From Limnochordia bacterium (lineage in GTDB: Bacteria; Bacillota; Limnochordia; DTU080), in contig JBMNJG010000005.1 of the NCBI GenBank assembly GCA_050951545.1, forward strand, positions 128,001 through 192,000: a DNA stretch of 64,000 nt, written 5' to 3'. Position 1 is the first letter of the stretch; each line of letters starts with the position of its first letter. The translations under genes were made by a program, and so were the position numbers. Positions 1 through 15,171 of the stretch are shown here, one piece after another. Below the pieces are notes generated by a model. The model had not been told where the DNA came from and searched no databases. It worked only from the letters and a program-made list of their open reading frames with translations.

Positions 1-639
1 AACATCGGCGCCTTCCTTGCGACGAACGAGATCGACCCCGGCCAGAATGTTGGACCATTGGTCGTCTCCCCCCATCTCCAAGCGGCAACCGTACTTGCGG
101 AACAGCGCGAGGTAGTCGTAGGCTTGCATGAGCATGTAGTTAAACTCCAAAAACGAGAGCCCACGCTCCAATCGGGCCTTGAAGCACTCGAAGCTCAGCA
201 TGCGATTCACAGAGAAGTGCACGCCGATCTCACGGAGCACATCCACGTATTTCAAGTCCAAGAGCCAGTCTGCGTTGTCCACCATAAGAGCCTTGCCCGG
301 ACCGAAATCCAAAAAACGCGAGAGCTGCTGTCGGAAACGCTCCCCATTGGCTCGGATTTCCTCCCGCGAAAGCATCGGTCGCATGTCGGTCTTGCCGCTT
401 GGATCGCCCACCATGGTAGTACCACCACCCACCAGAGCAATGGGCCTGTGACCATGCCTTTGCATGTGCATCATAGCCATGATGGTCAGAAAATGACCGA
501 CGTGCAAGCTGTCAGCGGTGCAGTCGAAACCAACATAGAAGGTGACTGGCGAGTTTCCAAGCAACTCCCGCAGCGGCTCATCATGTGTCACCTGGGCTAC
601 GTAACCCCGCTCAAAAAGCACATCGAAAACGTTGCTCAT
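1..639 (-). CDS. tyrS: Tyrosyl-tRNA synthetase, N-terminal part (runs off window start)
   Basis: Not in ORF track. Manual translation from ATG 639 (SD GGGGAGG): [12 protein letters not shown]...[15 protein letters not shown]...[13 protein letters not shown]...[12 protein letters not shown]...GGDDQWSNI, i.e. class I HIGH motif plus TyrRS motifs. Confidence 0.97.
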
Positions 640-729
640 AGCTATATGGCCTCCCCCGTGCATTGTTGTCTACATTAGCGCCCCTCATGTACCCGCTTGG
701 ATGCGAGTATCCGAGCCCGCACGAAAACC

Positions 730-978
730 CCAAAAAAGAAAACCCCATCGCAAGGACGAGGGGCTCGTGGTACCACCTTGACTTCACGCCGTATGGCGCC
801 TCAGCCGGAAACATGCTTCCAGTCCGCTATAACGGGCGACCCGGCCTTGTCTACTCGAGTTCAACAGGCAGCTCCAGAAGGTAATTCGCCGTGTGCCGTG
901 CTGCCGACCTCGCACCCGAGCGGCCGACTCTCTGAGGCTGTAACCGACACCAGCTACTTTGTTTCCATCATAGCCTTT
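730..978 (-). promoter_or_regulatory. T-box riboswitch leader (Tyr specifier) with intrinsic terminator
   Basis: Minus strand: AGAGA and GGUGCGA stem-I motifs, specifier loop GAAU-UAC (UAC at 881-883), T-box AAGGUGGUACCACG (766-779), then hairpin + U-tract upstream of tyrS. Confidence 0.93.
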
Positions 979-983
979 CGTTC

Positions 984-1012
984 AGAGTACCACATTAGCC
1001 AATGGCCTTCAA
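984..1012 (-). promoter_or_regulatory. Sigma-A-like promoter for the tyrS leader
   Basis: TTGAAG-17 bp-TACTCT with extended -10 TG, immediately 5' of the T-box leader. Confidence 0.6.
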
Positions 1013-1426
1013 GCTCTGGAGGGAAGGTGGGTGCACACGTGAAATCGCGGCGAACACCCGTTCCTAATCATGCTGCCTCCCGCCTCTCCCAGAAATCGTC
1101 CCACTGTTCACCGTGGGAGTATGCTGCAACGTTTGGCATCTGCTGTGCCCCAAGTTGGCTCCAACGCATTCCAGATTGCCTGTGGCGCCTAACAACAACC
1201 TGCTTACAGGCGCTTTCTACGCATCCGCTGCCAATGGGGTAGCCAGCGGCCTCCAGCCTCGGATAAAGGGTTCATCTCCTCCTGCGAAGGTGCCTCTTGA
1301 GTGCGTGTCAACCCACGAGTAAATCTTACCGAAGACCGTATGGCTCGCTCACCAAAGATCTAACCCAACGCTTGTCTAAGTTAGAGCAGGCATAGGCTCA
1401 CGACTACTGCTACGGACTCTCTGGGA

Positions 1427-1454
1427 TGCATCGGTGGCCTCGGCCACCGATGCA
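1427..1454. repeat. Perfect 13-bp inverted repeat downstream of the HTH-nuclease gene
   Basis: TGCATCGGTGGCC-TC-GGCCACCGATGCA; no U-tract on either side. Confidence 0.85.
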
Positions 1455-1621
1455 GTTGGTGGGCCTTGGCCGATCAGTTGTTCAATCCTGTGGTGCATAG
1501 CCAGTGGGTTTAGCTCACGTTGCCGCTTCTGCACGATCGCCGGCGGCGGGTGGACGCGCACTAACATTGGCTGCACGGCTGATGTGAGCCCTGACGAAAC
1601 GGACAAGGCGACCCAGGGTGA

Positions 1622-2398
1622 TTACTCGTCTTGCTTTCTCTCAGATTGGCTGGCGGTTCCCCAGCCACGCTCATCTATTCTTTGCTGGTACTCACCGCAT
1701 CTACACTCGAGATAGTTGATGAGCCTCCGGTTGAAGTCCTGACCGCGCCGGAATGGCAGCCGCCTGTGAATCTTGCGCTCGATGATCTTGCAGGACAGCT
1801 CGTGAGCCTGAATCACGATCAGCTTGATCTTCTTCTTAGCGCAGATCTGCTGTTTGGTCTGGTCACGGCATTGCTGCTTATGGACCTGCTCAGCCGAATT
1901 CCCCTCAGTGACGCGGTAGTGTTGCGCCCCATTGAACTCCATGGCCGTATTGTGCAGGTAATAGAAGAGATCGACCTCCAGACGCTTGCCAGTTGCTGGG
2001 TTCCTCATGAAACCTGGGCGCATTCCGTCGTCGAAGTCAAGGCAATCGACAAGCGCCAAGAAGATAGCCTGCATGAGAGCCTCTCCGAGGTGCGTAGCGC
2101 GGTGGAGCTCATCCTGCACGTCTAGTATTTCTTTTACATTTCGCTTATCAACCGGGTTGTGGAGAGTGAAGCGAATCGGTGCCCGCTTGTGCGCCTGCTC
2201 CATCTCCAGCCAACCATGCTTGGCCAACTGACGAGCCGCGTGTTTGATGGTTTGGGGGCTCAGACTCATCCGGCCGGCTAACTCAGCGTATGTGAACTGC
2301 CTTTTGCGAGGTGGGTCCGTAGGTTTGGACAGCAGTAGGGCATAAACCAATTTGGCCTGTGCATGGATTTCAGTAGCCATGACTAGCTCGACAGGCAC
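1622..2398 (-). CDS. Winged-HTH + Vsr/DUF559-like (PD-(D/E)xK-fold) endonuclease; probably the C-terminal part of a frameshifted ~353-aa protein
   Basis: wHTH: FTYAELAGRMSLSPQTIKHAARQLAKHGWL. Nuclease-like motif: NPATGKRLEVDLF...AMEFNGAQHY...QQCRDQTKQQIC...IKLIVI. Confidence 0.75.
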   Translation of the reverse strand: MPVELVMATEIHAQAKLVYALLLSKPTDPPRKRQFTYAELAGRMSLSPQTIKHAARQLAKHGWLEMEQAHKRAPIRFTLHNPVDKRNVKEILDVQDELHRATHLGEALMQAIFLALVDCLDFDDGMRPGFMRNPATGKRLEVDLFYYLHNTAMEFNGAQHYRVTEGNSAEQVHKQQCRDQTKQQICAKKKIKLIVIQAHELSCKIIERKIHRRLPFRRGQDFNRRLINYLECRCGEYQQRIDERGWGTASQSERKQDE

Positions 2399-2682
2399 GG
2401 AGACCCTGTCCGGGGATGGCTTCTGTGCCGCGGTCTGGCTAGGCCCCGCCTAGCCGGTGGAGCAAACCAGCCCTCGGTGGTTAACTTGGCTGTCGCCCTG
2501 CGAACGGTAGGCCGGGACATACCCGTGCGCCGCCCCAGGCGGCTGGGCGAGAAAAGGAAGCTTTCCTCCAGCTGATCATCCATCGTTAAGGCCATCCAAA
2601 CGATCTTCTCGCTGGCTTTTAGCTCGCGAGTCAGTAGCAGTGAGAGCGGCACGTTCACCTCATCTACATAGAGAGAGTACAA
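2383..2682 (-). CDS. Winged-HTH domain; probably the N-terminal part of the same protein (frameshift at ~2386-2449)
   Basis: TTG 2682 follows SD GAGGTG. VNVPLSLLLTRELKASEKIVWMAL...SPSRLGRRTGMSRPTVRRATAKLTTEGWF aligns with VSVPVELVMATEIHAQAKLVYALL...GWL in the downstream frame. Confidence 0.7.
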   Translation of the reverse strand: MYSLYVDEVNVPLSLLLTRELKASEKIVWMALTMDDQLEESFLFSPSRLGRRTGMSRPTVRRATAKLTTEGWFAPPARRGLARPRHRSHPRTGSPCLSS

Positions 2683-2730
2683 GGGCCTCACCTCACACAA
2701 CGATCATGTGTTCGATTGTCTCGATGGGAT

Positions 2731-2757
2731 GTTCGGTACGTGAGGCCAGAATCCTTC
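2731..2757 (-). promoter_or_regulatory. Sigma-H-like promoter for the HTH-nuclease gene
   Basis: GAAGGA-N17-GAAC about 50 nt upstream of the start codon; the same motif recurs before other genes in this window. Confidence 0.45.
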
Positions 2758-2796
2758 CACAGCTTTCGCTGAAAACGCGCGCATTGCCGGCTAAGA

Positions 2797-2812
2797 CCCG
2801 GTGGCCACCGGG
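2797..2812. repeat. Perfect 16-bp palindrome between nuclease gene and array
   Basis: CCCGGTGGCCACCGGG. Confidence 0.85.
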
Positions 2813-2837
2813 AGTCGACAGCATTTCCCGCTCGGAT

Positions 2838-5050
2838 CATCGGCTGAGTGGGAAAAGGCTATCGACACTGTTCGGTTATGTACCGCCCGGTAGCTCCAGA
2901 AGGGCCACCAAGGCGGGAAAGCGTGCCTCTTTTGGGGGGAAATGAGCCCTTCGGGCGGTCAAAATGAGCAAAAAGGGCTCCGCGAAGGCCGCATCGCTGC
3001 ACTTTTACCACGTACATTGGGCCCGGGGGTTAATGAGGCGGCTCTTTTGCCATCGCGGTCGGATTCTTGGCCCCGACTCACATACCAATCCGGGTGCATC
3101 TGTCCGACTACCGAGCGAGTCTCGCGAGCGTGTCCATTGATCCGTCCATTCTCTTCCAAATGCACCGACCGGGATAACACCGAAGGGTCGGTCCGCAGAG
3201 GGACCCGAGTGAGCCCGCCGTGATCGCGCACTGGGGAGCTGACCCCATCGGCTGAGTGGGAAAAAGGCTATCGCTCACCGTTCGGTTATGTACTGCCCGG
3301 CAGCCCCAGAAGCGGAACCAAGGCGGGAAAGCGCGCTCTTAGGCGGGGAAATGAGCCCTTCGGGCGGTCAAAATGAGCAAAAAGGGCTCCGCGAAGGCCG
3401 CATCGCTGCACTTTTACCACGTACATTGGCCCCGGGGGTTAATGGGGCGGCTCTTTTGCCATCGCGGTCGGATTCTTGGCCCCGACTCACGTACCAATCC
3501 GGGTACATCTGTTCGACTACCGAGCGAGTCTCGCGAGCGTGTCCATTGATCCGTCCATTCTCTTCCAAATGCACCGACCGGGGCAACACCGAAGGGTCGG
3601 TCCGCAGAGGGACCCGAGTGAGCCCGCCGTGATCGCGCACTGGGGAGCTGACCCCATCGACTGAGTGGGAAAAAGGCTACCGCCACCGTCCGGTTATGTA
3701 CCGCCCAGTAGCCCCAGAAGGGCCACCAAGGCGGGAAAGCGTGCCCTTAGGCGGGGAAATGAGCCCTTCGGGCGGTCAAAATGAGCAAAAAGGGCTTCGC
3801 GAAGGCCGCATCGCTGCACTTTTACCACGTACATTGGCCCCGGGGGCTAATGAGGCGGCTCTTTTGCCATCGCGGTCGGATTCTTGGCCCCGACTCGCAT
3901 GCCAATGCGGGTGAATCCCGTCCGACTACCGAGCGAGTCTCGCGAGCGCGTCCATTGCATCCGTCCACCTTTTTCGAAATACACCGACCGGGGCAACACC
4001 GAAGGGTCGGTCCGCAGAGGGACCCGAGTGAGCCCGCCGTGATCGCGCACTGGGGAGCTGACCCCATCGACTGAGTGGGAAAAGGCAGTCACTACCGTTC
4101 GGTTATGTGCCGCCCAGTAGCCCCAGAAGGGCCACCAAGGCGAGAAAGGTGCGCTCTTAGGCGGGGAAATGAGCCCTTCGGGCGGTCAAAATGAGCAAAA
4201 AGGGCTCCGCGAAGGCCGCATCGCTGCACTTTTACCACGTACATTGGCCCCGGGGGTTAATGAGGCGGCTCTTTTGCCATCGCCGTCGGATCTTGGCCCC
4301 TACTCACGTACCAATCCGGGTGCATCTGTCCGACTACCGAGCCAGTCTCGCGAGCGCGTCCATGCATCCGTCCATTCTCTTCCAAATGCACCGACCGGGA
4401 TAACAGTGAAGGGTCGGTTCGCAGAGGGACCCGAGCGAGCCCGCTGTGATCGCGCACTGGGGAGCTGACCCCATCGACTGAGTGGGAAAAAGGTACCGTC
4501 ACCATCCGGTTATGTACCGCCCAGTAGCCCCAGAAGGGCCACCAAGGCGGGAAAGCGCTCTCTTTTGGGGGGAAAAGAGCCCTTCGGGCGGTCAAAATCG
4601 GCAAAAAGGGCTCCGCGAAGGCCGCATCGCTGCACTTTTACCACGTACATTGGGCCCGGGGGTTAATGAGGCGGCTCTCTTGCCATCGCCGTCGGATCTT
4701 GGTCCCTACTCGCATGCCAATGCGGGTAAATCCCGTCCGACTACCGAGCCAGTCTCGCGAGCGCGTCCATGCATCCGTCCATTCTCTTCCAAATGCACCG
4801 ACCGGGTTAACACTGAAGGGTCGGTTCGCAGAGGGACCCGAGCGAGCCCGCTGTGATCGCGCACTGGGGAGCTGACCCCATCGACTGAGTGGGAAAAAGG
4901 TACCGTCACCATCCGGTTATGTACCGCCCAGTAGCCCCAGAAGGGCCACCAAGGCGAGAAAGCGTGCCCTTAGGCGGCGAAAAGCACCCTTCAGGCTGTC
5001 CAAACCAGCCAGAAGGGCTTCGCGAAGGCCGCATCGCTAGGTTGTTACCA
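2838..5050. repeat. Tandem array of ~408-bp units (5 full + 1 partial, degenerate)
   Basis: Unit starts (CATCG[G/A]CTGAGTGGG) at 2838, 3246, 3655, 4065, 4472, 4879; periods 408/409/410/407/407. Units differ by scattered SNPs and small indels; there are no unique spacers. Confidence 0.97.
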
Positions 5051-5287
5051 CCAACCCAAGCGAACGCAGGGAGATTACCGCAGTTTTTGCGTGGCCCCAG
5101 GGAAGGTCCGTCGACTACCACCACCTATTAGTGTAGCCCCGATCCCGAAAAAAACACTGTGCCTACAGGTGTAAGAGTTTCCATGCGGAAATACCCTCAT
5201 AGTACGCGTATGTGACGATTCCAATGCACTGTCTGGCATCATCCGAGACCGGGCTACGCCACTAACGCTGTAGAAAGAAGGTAACAC

Positions 5288-6130
5288 TTGAGCATTCGCA
5301 TTGTGACCGACAGTTCCTGTGACCTCCCTGCTGAACTCGCCCAGGAGCTAGACATTGAGGTTGTGCCTCTAACCGTGATCATCGATGGCCAGGAGTACGT
5401 TGAGGGTGTGACCATGGATGCCTCGCGTTTTGCGCACGTGATGCGCAACAGCACGGAACTGCCCAAAACATCACAGCCGAGCCCGCATGCTTTTGCATCT
5501 GCCTTTGAGCGTGTGGCCACTACCGCGAATAAAGCTGCCGAGGTGCTGTGTATCACGCTTTCATCGAAGCTGTCTGGCACCTTCCAGTCGGCGTGCATGG
5601 CCCGCAAGTTCTTTCGAGGCACCGTGAATGTGATTGATTCGCGCTCGGGAACGCTCGGTCTGGGTCTCATGGCATTGGAAGCTAAACGCCTAGCCACCCT
5701 GGGACTCTCCCTTAGTGAGATCACAGAGAAGATCGAAGCCATGCGAGAGCAGATCTCCGTCTTCGTGAGCCTGGACACGCTGGAAAACGCGGTCAAGGGC
5801 GGCCGTGTGCGACGAGTCGAGGCCGCTGTGGCTCAGCTACTGCGCATGAAGATCTTTGTGCGCACCAAAGACGGTGAGGTAGTAGTCTGCGGAAAGGCAC
5901 GTGGACGCAAGAACATGCTTGCCGGTTTCCTCGAAGCGATGCAGACCAAGGCTGAAGATTACCGTGATCGTTTCGTAGGTATCACGCATGTTGATAACGT
6001 CGCCGATGCCCAAGTTCTAGCCGATGCGATTAGGCACCGCTTTAGCCCGGCCCGGATCATTATCGCTCCAATGGGCAGTACCATCGCTACCTATGCTGGA
6101 GTAGGAGCCTTGGCGCTGGCCTACTGGTAG
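5288..6130 (+). CDS. DegV/FakB family fatty-acid-binding protein
   Basis: IVTDSSCDLP, PKTSQPSP, LSSKLSGT, GGR motifs. Confidence 0.95.
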   Translation: MSIRIVTDSSCDLPAELAQELDIEVVPLTVIIDGQEYVEGVTMDASRFAHVMRNSTELPKTSQPSPHAFASAFERVATTANKAAEVLCITLSSKLSGTFQSACMARKFFRGTVNVIDSRSGTLGLGLMALEAKRLATLGLSLSEITEKIEAMREQISVFVSLDTLENAVKGGRVRRVEAAVAQLLRMKIFVRTKDGEVVVCGKARGRKNMLAGFLEAMQTKAEDYRDRFVGITHVDNVADAQVLADAIRHRFSPARIIIAPMGSTIATYAGVGALALAYW

Positions 6131-11749: not shown

Positions 11750-11821
11750 GAGCGCCTCTCATTCATGTGCTCGTGGCGGGGCAACCTGGAGGCTTTTGCA
11801 CTGACTCCACAAAAAGACGAA

Positions 11822-12413
11822 AGGTAGTGGCAGCCAGACGAGTAAATATTGTGGCTTAGGTCCAGTAGGTTTTCCCAACAGAACACTGGTGCGTTGCCGC
11901 CTCCAGCGGTTCCCCTTTCAGCCCTGCTCTGGCTTGCGCCAGGACTGGATTACCACTTAGTCCACACTGCAATCCCCGAATGACTTGCCCATCGAGCAAC
12001 AGCCTAGGAGATTTCCTCAACACCACAGGCCATATCCTAGCCTCTCTTGCAGGGCGGGTTTCAAGCGGAAAGCTTCGAGGATGATCCAGAAATCTCCGCT
12101 ATCCCAATCGCCCCACTCAAGGCAGGCTACTCTGCACCCCACGCAGCTCAAGATACTTGCGCATTACTCACTACATCGCGTGCAGGTTCCTCTTCCATGC
12201 CGTAGAAGGCGCAAGCTCCACGCACATGGATCTCCACGGAGCAGGGTCAACGCCTACATGCCGTTGTAGATCGCCCTAACTCCTTAACCCTCAGCACCAC
12301 CCCCGACTGGGCGTCGAAAGCCAGCACCAAGGACTTCATCGATGTGCCCCTGACGGATTCTTAGGCCCGCCTTCAGATATGGAAGCAGTGACTAGGATAC
12401 TGCACCACTACCT
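11822..12413 (-). ncRNA. ole: OLE (ornate, large, extremophilic) RNA, ~590 nt
   Basis: 5' part GUGCAGUAUCCUAGUCA...GAAGGCGGGCCUAAGAAUCCG...GGGCACAUCGAUGAAGUCCUUGGUGCUGGC; 3' part GGAAAACCUACUGGACCUAAGCCACAA; ends pair (AGGUAGUGG/CCACUACCU); followed by oapA. Confidence 0.93.
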
Positions 12414-12427
12414 CTCGAATTACGTTC

Positions 12428-13024: not shown

Positions 13025-13089
13025 TCCCTTGTAGCCGTCACCACTTCACGCCTTCTTGTCTTACATGTACACACCACTAAGGGGGATTA
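13022..13089 (+). promoter_or_regulatory. Putative anti-SD hairpin sequestering the secDF ribosome-binding site
   Basis: UGAUCCCUUGUAG (13022-13034, includes the leader stop codon) can pair with CUAAGGGGGAUUA (13077-13089): 12 of 13 pairs counting G-U. Confidence 0.6.
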
Positions 13090-13091
13090 GC

Positions 13092-15171
13092 ATGATTCCA
13101 AAGAATGAACGTTGGAAGGCTATTGCTATTCTGGTGCTCGTCGTCGTTGGTGCCATAGCCATTTGGCAGCGCCCACTTCATCTTGGACTGGATCTGCGAG
13201 GCGGCACCAGTATCTTACTCGAAGCCGATAGCGAGGGCCGTGCTCTAGAGAGCGGCACGATGGAGCAACTGATTGGGGTAGTCGAACGGCGCGTCAACCA
13301 GCTAGGATTGACCGAGAGTGTCGTCCAACGCCGAGGCACTGATCGCATCGCGGTGGAGCTGCCTGGCTATGATGATCAGGACGCTGCGATAGCAGCCTTA
13401 GGTAAGACCGCCCTACTGACCATGAGCGATGAGCATGGCAACGTAATCATCACTGGTGCTGAGCTCAAAGAAGCTACCCTCTCAAGAGACAACTATGGGC
13501 GTCCCGCGGTCGCTGTAACCTTCCGCCCTGATGGCGCTACGAAGTTTGCCACCTTTACTCGGGCGAATGTGGGCAGGGCACTTGTCATCCGCTTGGATGA
13601 CGATATCCTTTCCACAGCTGTCATCCAGGAGCCTATCACAGATGGTCGGGGCCAGATTAGCGGCCGCTTCTCTATCGACGAGGCCAAGGAGCTGACAGCG
13701 TTGCTTCGAGCTGGTGCCCTACCCGTTCCGGTCAGGGTGGTTGAGGCGCATACAGTCGGCCCCAGCTTGGGTGAGGCATCTGTGCAGCAAAGCCTCCAAG
13801 CCGCCATTATCGGGTTGATCGGTACCGTCGTCTTCATGATTCTCGCGTACCGCGGTCTAGGTCTCGTGGCGGCTCGTTGCCCTCTGCATCTACGCCGTGT
13901 TGGTGGCTGGTGGACTCATGGGCATGGGCGCCGTGCTTACCCTGCCTGGTATCGCGGGCCTGATGCTCTCAATCGGCATGGCCGTAGACGGCAACGTGTT
14001 GGTCTTTGAGCGGGCCAAGGAGGAGTATAAGAATACCAACAGCGTCTACGCAGCCATACGCAAGGGCTATGAGCGAGCGTTTTCAGCCATCGTTGACTCT
14101 AACGTGACCACATTACTGGCTGCACTGATCTTGTTCTTCTTGTCCGCAGGCGCTGTCCGAGGCTTTGCTATCACTCTGGGCATCGGTGTACTCGCTAGCT
14201 TCATCACTGCCGTTACAGCCTCGCGCATTCTGACCTACATCCTAGCTGGCATCGGAATGCAAGAACGCCCTGCGGCCATGGGCCTCACCACGAAATTTAG
14301 GTCCACTAACTGGAACGTGGTGCGACGCCGTGGCCTGTGGTTCGGCATTTCCGGCCTGCTGATTCTCATCAGCTTGTTCTCTTTAGTAACGAAAGGTCTT
14401 GACTACGGTCTGGATTTCGCGGGCGGTACGCTGGTGGAAGTGCAGACCAACCGCAGCCTGAACTTGTCGGAGATCGAGAGCCATACAGCAGACGTGGGCA
14501 TCACTAATGTCTTGATCCAGCCTAGCACACAATCGTTCTCACTCAAAGGCAAGGATCTCTCCAAAGAGGATGTCCAGAAGTTGGTCAGCGAGCTCGAGGA
14601 GGACGGCCTGGAGCCGCACCTGATTCGACAAGAGTATGTAGGTCCCTCTATCGGCAGCGAGGTGCGGCAGAAAGCTGTGTTGGCGCTGCTACTCGCTTTG
14701 ATCGGACAGATCATCTACGTCAGCATCCGCTTTGAGTGGCGTTTTGCCATCTCGGCTGTGGCGGCCCTGTTCCACGATGTACTGCTACTGGTAGGGCTCT
14801 TCTCGATTCTACAGCTAGAGATCGATGGGACCTTCGTTGCAGCTCTACTAACGATCGTCGGTTACTCCATCAACGATACCGTGGTTATCTTTGATCGTAT
14901 CAGGGAGAACCGAAAGCTTATGCGAGATGCGCAGTGGCCCGATCTGGTGAATAGTTCCATCACCCAGACGATGTCCCGCTCGCTCAACACAGGTCTGTCG
15001 ACGCTGATCGTCTTGGCTGCACTGCTGTTCTTGGGTGGAGACACCCTGTTTAGCTTCGCCTTGGCCCTCTTCACTGGTGTTGTCGTGGGTACCTACTCGT
15101 CAGTCTTTGTCGTCGGTCCCCTGGTTGCTGTCTGGCATGACAACACACACAGGAGGCAAAAAAGGGCCTAG
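13092..15171 (+). CDS. secDF: Protein translocase subunit SecDF (fused), one +1 frameshift near 13874
   Basis: LGLDLRGG, VGPSLG, LTLPGIAG..IGMAVDGNV.FER, GLDFAGG, GYSINDTVVIFDRIRE. Removing one base joins the two ORFs into ~692 aa (GLVAAVALCIYAVLV). Confidence 0.93.

Follow-up and report, generated by a model that had tools for sequence, protein, structure and literature searches.

Introduction

Transposons are classed by the chemistry of their transposases, and few such classes are known. Here we describe a 64,000-nucleotide stretch of the genome of a Limnochordia bacterium (GenBank assembly GCA_050951545.1, contig JBMNJG010000005.1, positions 128,001 to 192,000 of the forward strand; hereafter the window), in which positions 1029–5098 are probably a single insertion of a previously undescribed transposable element resembling insertion sequences, with a nuclease as its mobility enzyme and a tandem array as a subterminal satellite of binding sites. 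If the protein does move the element, one class would be added to those known, and a compact, sequence-directed enzyme that cuts and inserts DNA would become available for study. The long-period internal satellite is unusual for bacteria and provides a tractable case for the origin and turnover of arrays inside mobile DNA.

As a kind, the element is an insertion sequence. It shares with insertion sequences its multiple copies, sharp ends, imperfect inverted repeats, 9-bp target duplications, intergenic insertions, internally deleted derivatives and single gene. It differs from them in that the gene product falls in no Pfam or NCBIfam transposase family and that the element holds a 0.6–2.4-kb satellite of ~408-bp units; the candidate enzyme and the long-period satellite set it apart, possibly as a new transposase class. 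In Tn7, the restriction-enzyme-like transposition nuclease TnsA, which has a winged helix, works with the DDE protein TnsB. The present protein likewise combines a PD-(D/E)XK nuclease with a winged-helix part in what would be the service of a transposon. However, only one conserved open reading frame (ORF) and no second gene lie between the ends, the domain order is reversed, and neither the Pfam search nor the fold comparison matches the protein to TnsA. Homing endonuclease genes lie in or beside one cognate target and spread by break repair with no target duplication, whereas the copies described here occupy unrelated intergenic sites with 9-bp duplications rather than one cognate site, an intron or an intein.

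The plasmid replication initiators RepE and Pi, which bind iterons, also carry two tandem winged helices in one chain and act beside direct repeats; the repeat units of the present element are 5 to 20 times longer than iterons, and its protein, unlike these initiators, has a nuclease domain and is not found on plasmids. Eukaryotic transposons, including Foldback elements, miniature inverted-repeat transposable elements and Helitrons, give rise to internal satellites. The array described here similarly lies inside a mobile element, next to one end, and varies in copy number, but its host is prokaryotic, and a literature search at the level of titles and listings turned up no bacterial example and no report of such an element. 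CRISPR arrays differ in that here the whole 409-bp unit repeats at 87% mean identity and has no unique part, and no Cas protein is encoded by the 40 window ORFs that were scanned. For the nuclease, the review PMC3424549 places Vsr, DUF559 and DUF2726 in one PD-(D/E)XK clade with the structures 1cw0, 3r3p and 3hrl. Our protein resembles this group and the homing endonuclease I-Bth0305I in the fold of residues 210–325 and in its homing matches in PHROG; it differs in being fused to two winged helices and in having no mismatch-repair context. The DUF2726 profile matches 11 of 103 relatives.

The window carries one copy of a multicopy element with inverted ends

The genome that contains the window comprises 3.64 Mb in 16 contigs, designated here by C-numbers. 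When positions 1–6000 of the window are compared with this genome, homology to other copies starts at 1025–1034 and stops at 5094–5104. On the right, 15 copies or fragments share a sharp boundary, beyond which the sequences are unrelated; on the left, the boundary is sharp in 9–10 copies. The complete copy in the window (1029–5098; 4070 bp) consists, in this order, of a left end, a gene, a spacer, an array and a right end, and we refer to such copies as family A. The left terminal inverted repeat (1029–1065, plus strand) begins GGGTGCACACG and is imperfect; the right end (5039–5098, plus strand) contains the right inverted repeat and ends with GCGTGGCCCC. Local alignment of the left end with the reverse complement of the right end extends over ~37 nt with a score of 20, which is reached by 3 of 300 shuffles. 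The left-end region as a whole (1029–1621) was delimited from copy multiplicity by position and the alignment of 9 copies. Within it, a module of ~220 nt (1029 to ~1250) is conserved at 96–98%, and the remainder, from ~1250 to 1621 at the stop codon of the gene, is a mosaic stretch that is variably deleted.

The element is flanked by the 9-bp target-site duplication AGGGAAGGT, which is identical at 1020–1028 on the left and 5099–5107 on the right. Eight copies have both ends on one contig; five of them carry a perfect 9-bp duplication and one a duplication matching at 8 of 9 positions, and all eight are situated between ORFs of at least 200 aa. A ninth pair, formed by the left end at C16:2332 and the right end at C11:1508, has an 8/9 duplication across two contigs, which indicates that the assembly breaks inside an array. 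In an all-versus-all comparison of the 11 left and 9 right flanks that were caught by pattern, matches of at least 7 of 9 positions occur in cognate pairs only. Contigs C16 (1–2332) and C11 (1–1508) both begin within arrays and are the halves of one element, and contig C14 also begins beside an element; the array breaks the assembly at no fewer than three contig ends.

Some copies use a shorter alternative left end. The copy at C7:454878–458153 has both left ends, separated by 130 nt of unique DNA, and its target duplication matches the outer one, which is the outcome expected of end-recognising transposition. Copies with internal gene deletions retain both ends, and one of these, on C12, also retains the duplication. 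Throughout the genome, end-like sequences are found only in these elements and their remnants and around no other gene. A lone left-end-like fragment of ~100 nt, with no gene or array, lies at C11:77413–77513 (minus strand). Within the left part of some copies (C16:2000–2332, C7:457613–457720 and C7:660050–660170), a right-end-like sequence stands ~15 nt from a short-type left end, which could reflect either a nested insertion or ends that were once joined.

The insertion lies between tyrS (1–663, minus strand), with its T-box leader (749–980, minus strand), and degV (5288–6130, plus strand), as the initial annotation of this DNA had placed it. The gene and array are not a fixed system of the tyrS–degV interval: a multicopy element, which has inverted ends and makes 9-bp duplications, has inserted there once. 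That annotation called for an empty tyrS–degV site in a relative; in G002, a genome from the same genus, tyrS and degV are separated by ~350 bp with no element between them, although the intergenic DNA has diverged so that the exact empty site is not visible. Taken as a whole, the insertion is very likely a mobile element.

Gene and array are linked across copies

The gene for the nuclease (1622–2700, minus strand), which we term WH1-WH2-Vsr-like, is frameshifted in the window copy and appears there as two overlapping minus-strand ORFs, 1622–2398 (258 aa) and 2383–2700 (105 aa), located 137 bp from the array. The same two ORFs form a single uninterrupted frame of 359 aa in 13 other copies in the genome. 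The frame of the window copy shifts after 2443, where it lacks one T that the aligned contigs of all four sequencing runs have; the copy is thus either broken or mis-assembled at that base. The spacer between gene start and array (2701–2837; 137 bp) has no similarity to the unit, and its mean identity between copies is 92% by pairwise alignment and 87% by MAFFT. Tandem Repeats Finder (TRF) reports one array within the first 9 kb of the window, at 2838–5038, with a period of 409, 5.4 copies, 91% matches and a score of 3529. It comprises five full units of 407–410 bp and a partial unit (unit positions 1–175), and its plus orientation denotes the numbering only and implies no transcript strand. 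The ~5.4 units of 407–410 bp of the initial annotation are therefore recovered by TRF, and the distance to the gene, given there as ~155 bp, is corrected to 137 bp.

One unit gives 84 matches in its own genome; by blastn, 83 hits fall at 25 loci and cover 27.3 kb, or 0.75% of the genome. Fifteen of the 25 array loci adjoin a full-length gene, three a gene remnant and seven neither, one of the seven being the start of C11, which is part of the copy at the start of C16. When both ORF products are used as tblastn queries, near-identical copies (97–98% protein identity) are found beside arrays. The census of family-A ORFs counts 13 intact copies of 359 aa, two frameshifted ones (the window copy and C5:33887) and short remnants, and the element is present about 16 times in this bacterium in round terms. 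Every full-length family-A gene copy (15 of 15) adjoins an array, which agrees with the earlier proposal that gene and array form a selfish module. Apart from the gene, no ORF is kept between copies, as judged from copy multiplicity and the alignment of 9 copies. The gene is under purifying selection: across the 78 pairs of the 13 intact copies, the proportions of synonymous (pS) and nonsynonymous (pN) differences are 0.049 and 0.0085 (pN/pS 0.17), with a mean nucleotide identity of 98.2%.

The protein joins two winged helices to a nuclease fold

The two winged helices of the protein are mutually homologous (28% identity over 68 aa, E 4e-9), and the Pfam family HTH_36 matches the protein in two stretches (E 4.7e-9). 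Searches of Pfam (E up to 10) and NCBIfam (E up to 1) return nothing beyond helix-turn-helix families and rows at chance level, with no profile of a nuclease or a transposase; none of the known transposase classes (DDE, DEDD, HUH, serine, tyrosine) is recognised in the family-A protein by these two databases. The C-terminal part contains the motif D252, E263-F-N-G-x-Q-H-Y, R287-D288 and K291. Among 103 relatives, K291 is invariant, and conservation is at least 90% at D252, E263, G266, Q268, H269, R287 and D288. They include putative catalytic-type residues.

An AlphaFold model built from the 103-sequence alignment has a predicted local distance difference test (pLDDT) of 90.1 and a predicted template-modelling score (pTM) of 0.85. 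Residues 210–325 of the model match Vsr (1cw0_A; Z 8.1, root-mean-square deviation 2.9, 103 aligned), the catalytic domain of the homing endonuclease I-Bth0305I (3r3p_B; Z 7.7, alignment covering 93 of the 98 residues of the chain) and a DUF559-type protein (3hrl_A; Z 7.6). Residues 17–191 match the iteron-bound Pi initiator (2nra_C; Z 7.7, 164 aligned). Foldseek finds no match to the whole model at E up to 0.001 and lists RepE54 with a probability of 0.94–0.98, E near 0.05–0.12 and a template-modelling score of 0.41–0.43 on the target. The two halves are divided in the same way by PHROG, in which the C-terminal domain matches homing and intron-encoded nucleases (homing families, E 1e-8 to 1e-11) and the N-terminal part phage replication initiators (E 1e-7 to 1e-11). 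The DUF2726 profile matches the 11 relatives mentioned above (best E 4.2e-5) but not the family-A protein, and the DUF559 and Vsr profiles are not among the matches listed.

By its predicted fold, the C-terminal domain is a Vsr/DUF559-type nuclease, and the modelled protein as a whole is a fusion of two winged helices like those of Rep initiators to a PD-(D/E)XK domain of the Vsr and homing-endonuclease type. Three earlier descriptions of the protein thereby hold: the pair of homologous winged-helix domains; the D..E.NG.QHY..RD..K motif, which is invariant or nearly so in the 103 relatives; and the likeness to Vsr/DUF559 endonucleases, which is seen by fold.

The array diverges rapidly and contains a conserved block

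Array size ranges from 1.4 to 5.9 units across copies. Every array starts at unit position 1 and stops near position 175, and most consist of whole units followed by the first 160–175 bases of the next one; these fixed boundaries are compatible with ordinary unequal recombination equally well as with protein-driven amplification. Unit identity is 89.5% between adjacent units, 88.7% between non-adjacent units of one array and 86.4–86.7% between arrays whatever the position, and the nearest relative of a unit lies in its own array for only 16 of 54 units. The mean identity between copies decreases from the gene (98.5%) to the spacer (92%), the first unit (90%) and the second unit (87%). Even in pairs of elements with genes 99.0–99.5% identical, the gene-proximal units are only 87–95% alike, and array and spacer diverge several times faster than the synonymous sites of the gene. 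This fast divergence could stem from old unit variants being shuffled, from error-prone repair in the array, or from gene conversion that keeps the gene copies alike. The substitution spectrum is symmetric and unremarkable.

Diversity is unevenly distributed along the unit. It amounts to 0.134 overall, 0.177 in columns 250–345, 0.061 in columns 375–408 and 0.063 in columns 132–177. The last of these stretches is a conserved block of ~45 nt (for example 3377–3422 in the window) and is the only part shared with the units of a sister family, family B. The block also closes the terminal partial unit, ~60 nt from the right end, so that an array of n units holds n+1 copies of it.

The array gives no sign of encoding an RNA or a protein. 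Rfam yields no match to the array, either at the gathering score or, over window positions 600–5300, at E up to 1. Single units fold no better than dinucleotide shuffles (z +0.46 and +0.43 on the two strands). RNAalifold on 54 full-length units (mean pairwise identity 86.6%), run with shuffle and slide controls, predicts weak structures on both strands. After column shuffling, the plus strand averages 6.3 pairs changed on both sides, with 8 being reached in 30 of 200 shuffles, and the minus strand averages 5.5; the observed numbers are 8 and 5, respectively. A structured RNA was rejected on these three background-level results, and neither the "structured" repeats of the initial annotation nor its suggestion of ~400-nt structured RNAs is supported. 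A coding repeat was likewise rejected: unit lengths are not multiples of 3, and in each frame the median length of the longest run free of stops is 65–82 of ~136 codons. Variation by codon phase shows a mild excess in one phase (817 versus 658 and 688), in counts that are non-independent. Promoter-like and terminator-like sites in the array are at background level. Contigs from the RNA libraries of runs X16 and X17 cover the gene (1671–2563) and hardly the array, onto which one 76-nt piece maps; being contigs, they give no measure of transcript level and no proof that a stretch is silent, and they may derive from carried-over DNA. A unit motif that seemed by eye to recur in family-A left ends is unsupported, its score being reached by 111 and 189 of 200 shuffles.

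Sister families and relatives in other genomes

Three further families of the gene are present in the same genome. Family B has 4 copies with 54–55% protein identity to family A, and ~255–282-bp units in ~3 copies downstream of the gene, detected by TRF beside 2 of the 4. Family C has 7 copies, one of them broken, with 47–49% protein identity to family A and with 94- or 104-bp units in 2 to 4.6 copies downstream of the gene. Family D has 2 copies with 46–47% protein identity to family A and no array by TRF. The type of gene is the sole feature common to all four multicopy families. Families A and B have similar right ends, and their units share the block, with 46 nt at 78% identity and a 71-nt alignment whose score is reached by 0 of 200 shuffles.

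A word-indexed protein search recovered 4 relatives only, so that an exhaustive profile search was needed. Over 1.84 billion representatives, this search finds 8308 proteins at E up to 0.001 and, at E up to 1e-30, 241 clusters (50% identity), of which many are full length. The 10 relatives that were looked up are unnamed or annotated "hypothetical protein" and mostly lie on short contigs, and clusters from the ESM Atlas are unnamed and from Bacillota. Named records come from Limnochordia, Symbiobacteriaceae, Thermaerobacter and unclassified metagenome bins of Bacillota. The gene is present, often in several copies, in 14 of 41 genomes comprising that of the window and 40 relatives (E up to 1e-20); in a sample of 400 further genomes of the phylum, 23 contain it (E up to 1e-30). 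It was found in neither of two genomes of the same genus, of which one is 95% complete in 280 contigs and the other 91% complete in 380, and the family-A unit was found in none of the 40 relatives. Neither the right-end nor the left-end pattern of family A was found in JGI metagenome contigs. The full-length protein matches 0 of 72,556 plasmid records. Among phage records only 4 match, all from Staphylococcus phages and in the nuclease domain only, over 29% of the protein length.

A tandem repeat of period at least 50 is present within ~6 kb in 12 of the 58 loci examined in other genomes. The long-period repeat is at most 600 bp from the gene in 6 loci and more than 2 kb away in 5, despite ~nine times more sequence at the greater distance, an enrichment near the gene of the kind the initial annotation had anticipated. 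Three of 20 loci in the relatives have a repeat, and alignment adds two-copy upstream repeats in further copies of the relative G009. Arrays thus occur near some homologues and not near most; gene and array are repeatedly, but not obligatorily, found together.

A candidate mobility enzyme and the alternatives to it

We infer that the protein is the mobility enzyme because it is the only trait common to the four multicopy families and is kept intact under selection, because the end-like sequences occur nowhere else in the genome, and because it combines DNA-binding domains with a conserved nuclease site. As to whether it is the element's own mobility enzyme, we regard the case as evenly balanced. 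In the proposed mechanism, the winged helices would recognise the element DNA, and the nuclease would cut the element ends and make the staggered cut in the target. A 9-bp duplication requires a target cut with a 9-nt stagger, which a dimer of the nicking Vsr-type domain could make. The array would be a multiplied subterminal platform for protein binding, with the conserved ~45-nt block of each unit as its working part, and unequal recombination among units would alter its copy number. We put forward only tentatively that the WH1-WH2-Vsr-like protein represents a new prokaryotic class of transposase, a sequence-specific nuclease serving an inverted-repeat element that makes 9-bp duplications with no DDE, HUH, serine or tyrosine enzyme and maintains a rapidly diversifying subterminal satellite of protein-binding units. 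Such a satellite would parallel, in bacteria, those carried by eukaryotic transposons.

Several observations weigh against this explanation. To our knowledge, no lone Vsr-type nuclease has a transposition chemistry, and the fold matches, with Z near 8, are middling on the scale of the comparison tool. Two of the eight single-contig copies have no matching target duplications. For families B and C, inverted ends and target duplications were sought and could not be defined, and what family C has at its left end is a single repeat module, oriented like its array. No family-A end motifs were found near the homologues in the 58 loci of other genera, 46 of which have no repeat of period at least 50 within 6 kb. 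The unit has no similarity to the element ends (scores reached by 167, 119 and 146 of 300 shuffles), and hence no shared binding site is shown. Finally, the array is the fastest-diverging part of the element, a behaviour that also fits a neutral satellite.

That the array is a binding platform rather than such a satellite is a cautious suggestion, and the neutral alternative is nearly as likely. A functionless array would have arisen from a 175-bp direct repeat in the element and changed in size by unequal recombination or slippage. The boundaries at unit position 1 and near position 175, the copy numbers of 1.4 to 5.9, the unit identities of 86.5% between and 89% within arrays, far under the 98% of the gene, and the lack of arrays beside most homologues elsewhere are all as a neutral satellite would have them. 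Set against it are the arrays of unrelated unit length, which accompany three of the four families in this genome and some homologues in other genera, and the presence in the unit of one block that has half the diversity of the remainder and is shared, in conserved form, by families A and B. On balance we consider the neutral satellite possible, though rather improbable in itself.

For mobility, the main rival to the element's own nuclease is a transposase acting in trans. The element would then be non-autonomous and moved through its inverted ends by an unlinked enzyme, for instance of the DDE type, with the nuclease as a cargo gene for homing, addiction, regulation or defence. Inverted ends together with a 9-bp duplication are the hallmark left by DDE enzymes, a lone Vsr-type nuclease is not known as a transposase, and the C12 copy is a gene-less derivative that has both ends and the duplication. 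Yet the end-like sequences are confined to these elements and their remnants and surround no other gene, the four diverged multicopy families have this gene in common and nothing else, and the gene is under purifying selection across 13 copies; PADLOC gives only weak helix-turn-helix matches for the protein. Movement by an unlinked transposase appears unlikely to us.

More doubtful still is an iteron-like replication origin, at which the winged-helix protein would bind the repeats, nick them and replicate an excised or circular form of the element. The tandem winged helices do resemble those of iteron-bound Pi and of RepE, with the PHROG matches to replication initiators noted above, and the gene adjoins direct repeats. 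However, the units measure 94–409 bp rather than ~20 bp, the protein is absent from all 72,556 plasmid records and matched by no phage record over more than 29% of its length, and all copies are chromosomal with target duplications; we consider this reading very improbable. The unit lengths and the absence of a unique spacer part also uphold the earlier judgement that the array is neither a CRISPR nor a set of iterons. Least probable of all is that transcripts of the array are processed to unit length and act with the nuclease as structured or guide RNAs, an idea that could draw on the position of the array next to one element end, as for the RNAs of IS200/IS605 and IS110, and on the 76-nt RNA-library piece. 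Against it stand the lack of any Rfam match up to E 1, the folding, covariation and promoter-like sites at background, and the absence of a Pfam RNA-binding domain from the protein.

Neighbouring features and other repeats

Pfam assigns only housekeeping families to 40 further window ORFs of at least 220 aa, among which there is no transposase, integrase, reverse transcriptase or Cas protein; the earlier statement that the window lacks such genes holds for this set. The T-box leader of tyrS scores 82.4 bits, below the Rfam gathering cut-off of 93. The left end of the element lies ~50 nt upstream of this T-box and reads as ~14 nt upstream of a putative tyrS promoter.

At 6.7 kb from the element, and with no evident connection to it, the window contains a full-length ornate large extremophilic (OLE) RNA (11811–12424, minus strand; 439 bits, model positions 1–616 of 616). 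The secDF region at 13056–15171 (plus strand) is split into two ORFs with a 113-nt overlap, one with the SecD head domains (13056–14009) and the other with the SecD/SecF C-terminal domain (13897–15171); the split may be a frameshift or an assembly error.

Elsewhere in the genome, TRF detects CRISPR-like runs with periods of 61–67 bp and 65–87% match at C6:153894–159109, C16:153015–157743 and C9:15169–16945. A family-A fragment consisting of a unit and 65 gene codons (C6:159496–159833) directly follows the run on C6. Two tandem repeats of very long period, 1480 bp in 3.9 copies at 95% (C4:141547–147253) and 1218 bp in 2.9 copies at 81% (C7:358071–361578), are unrelated to the 409-bp unit by blastn.

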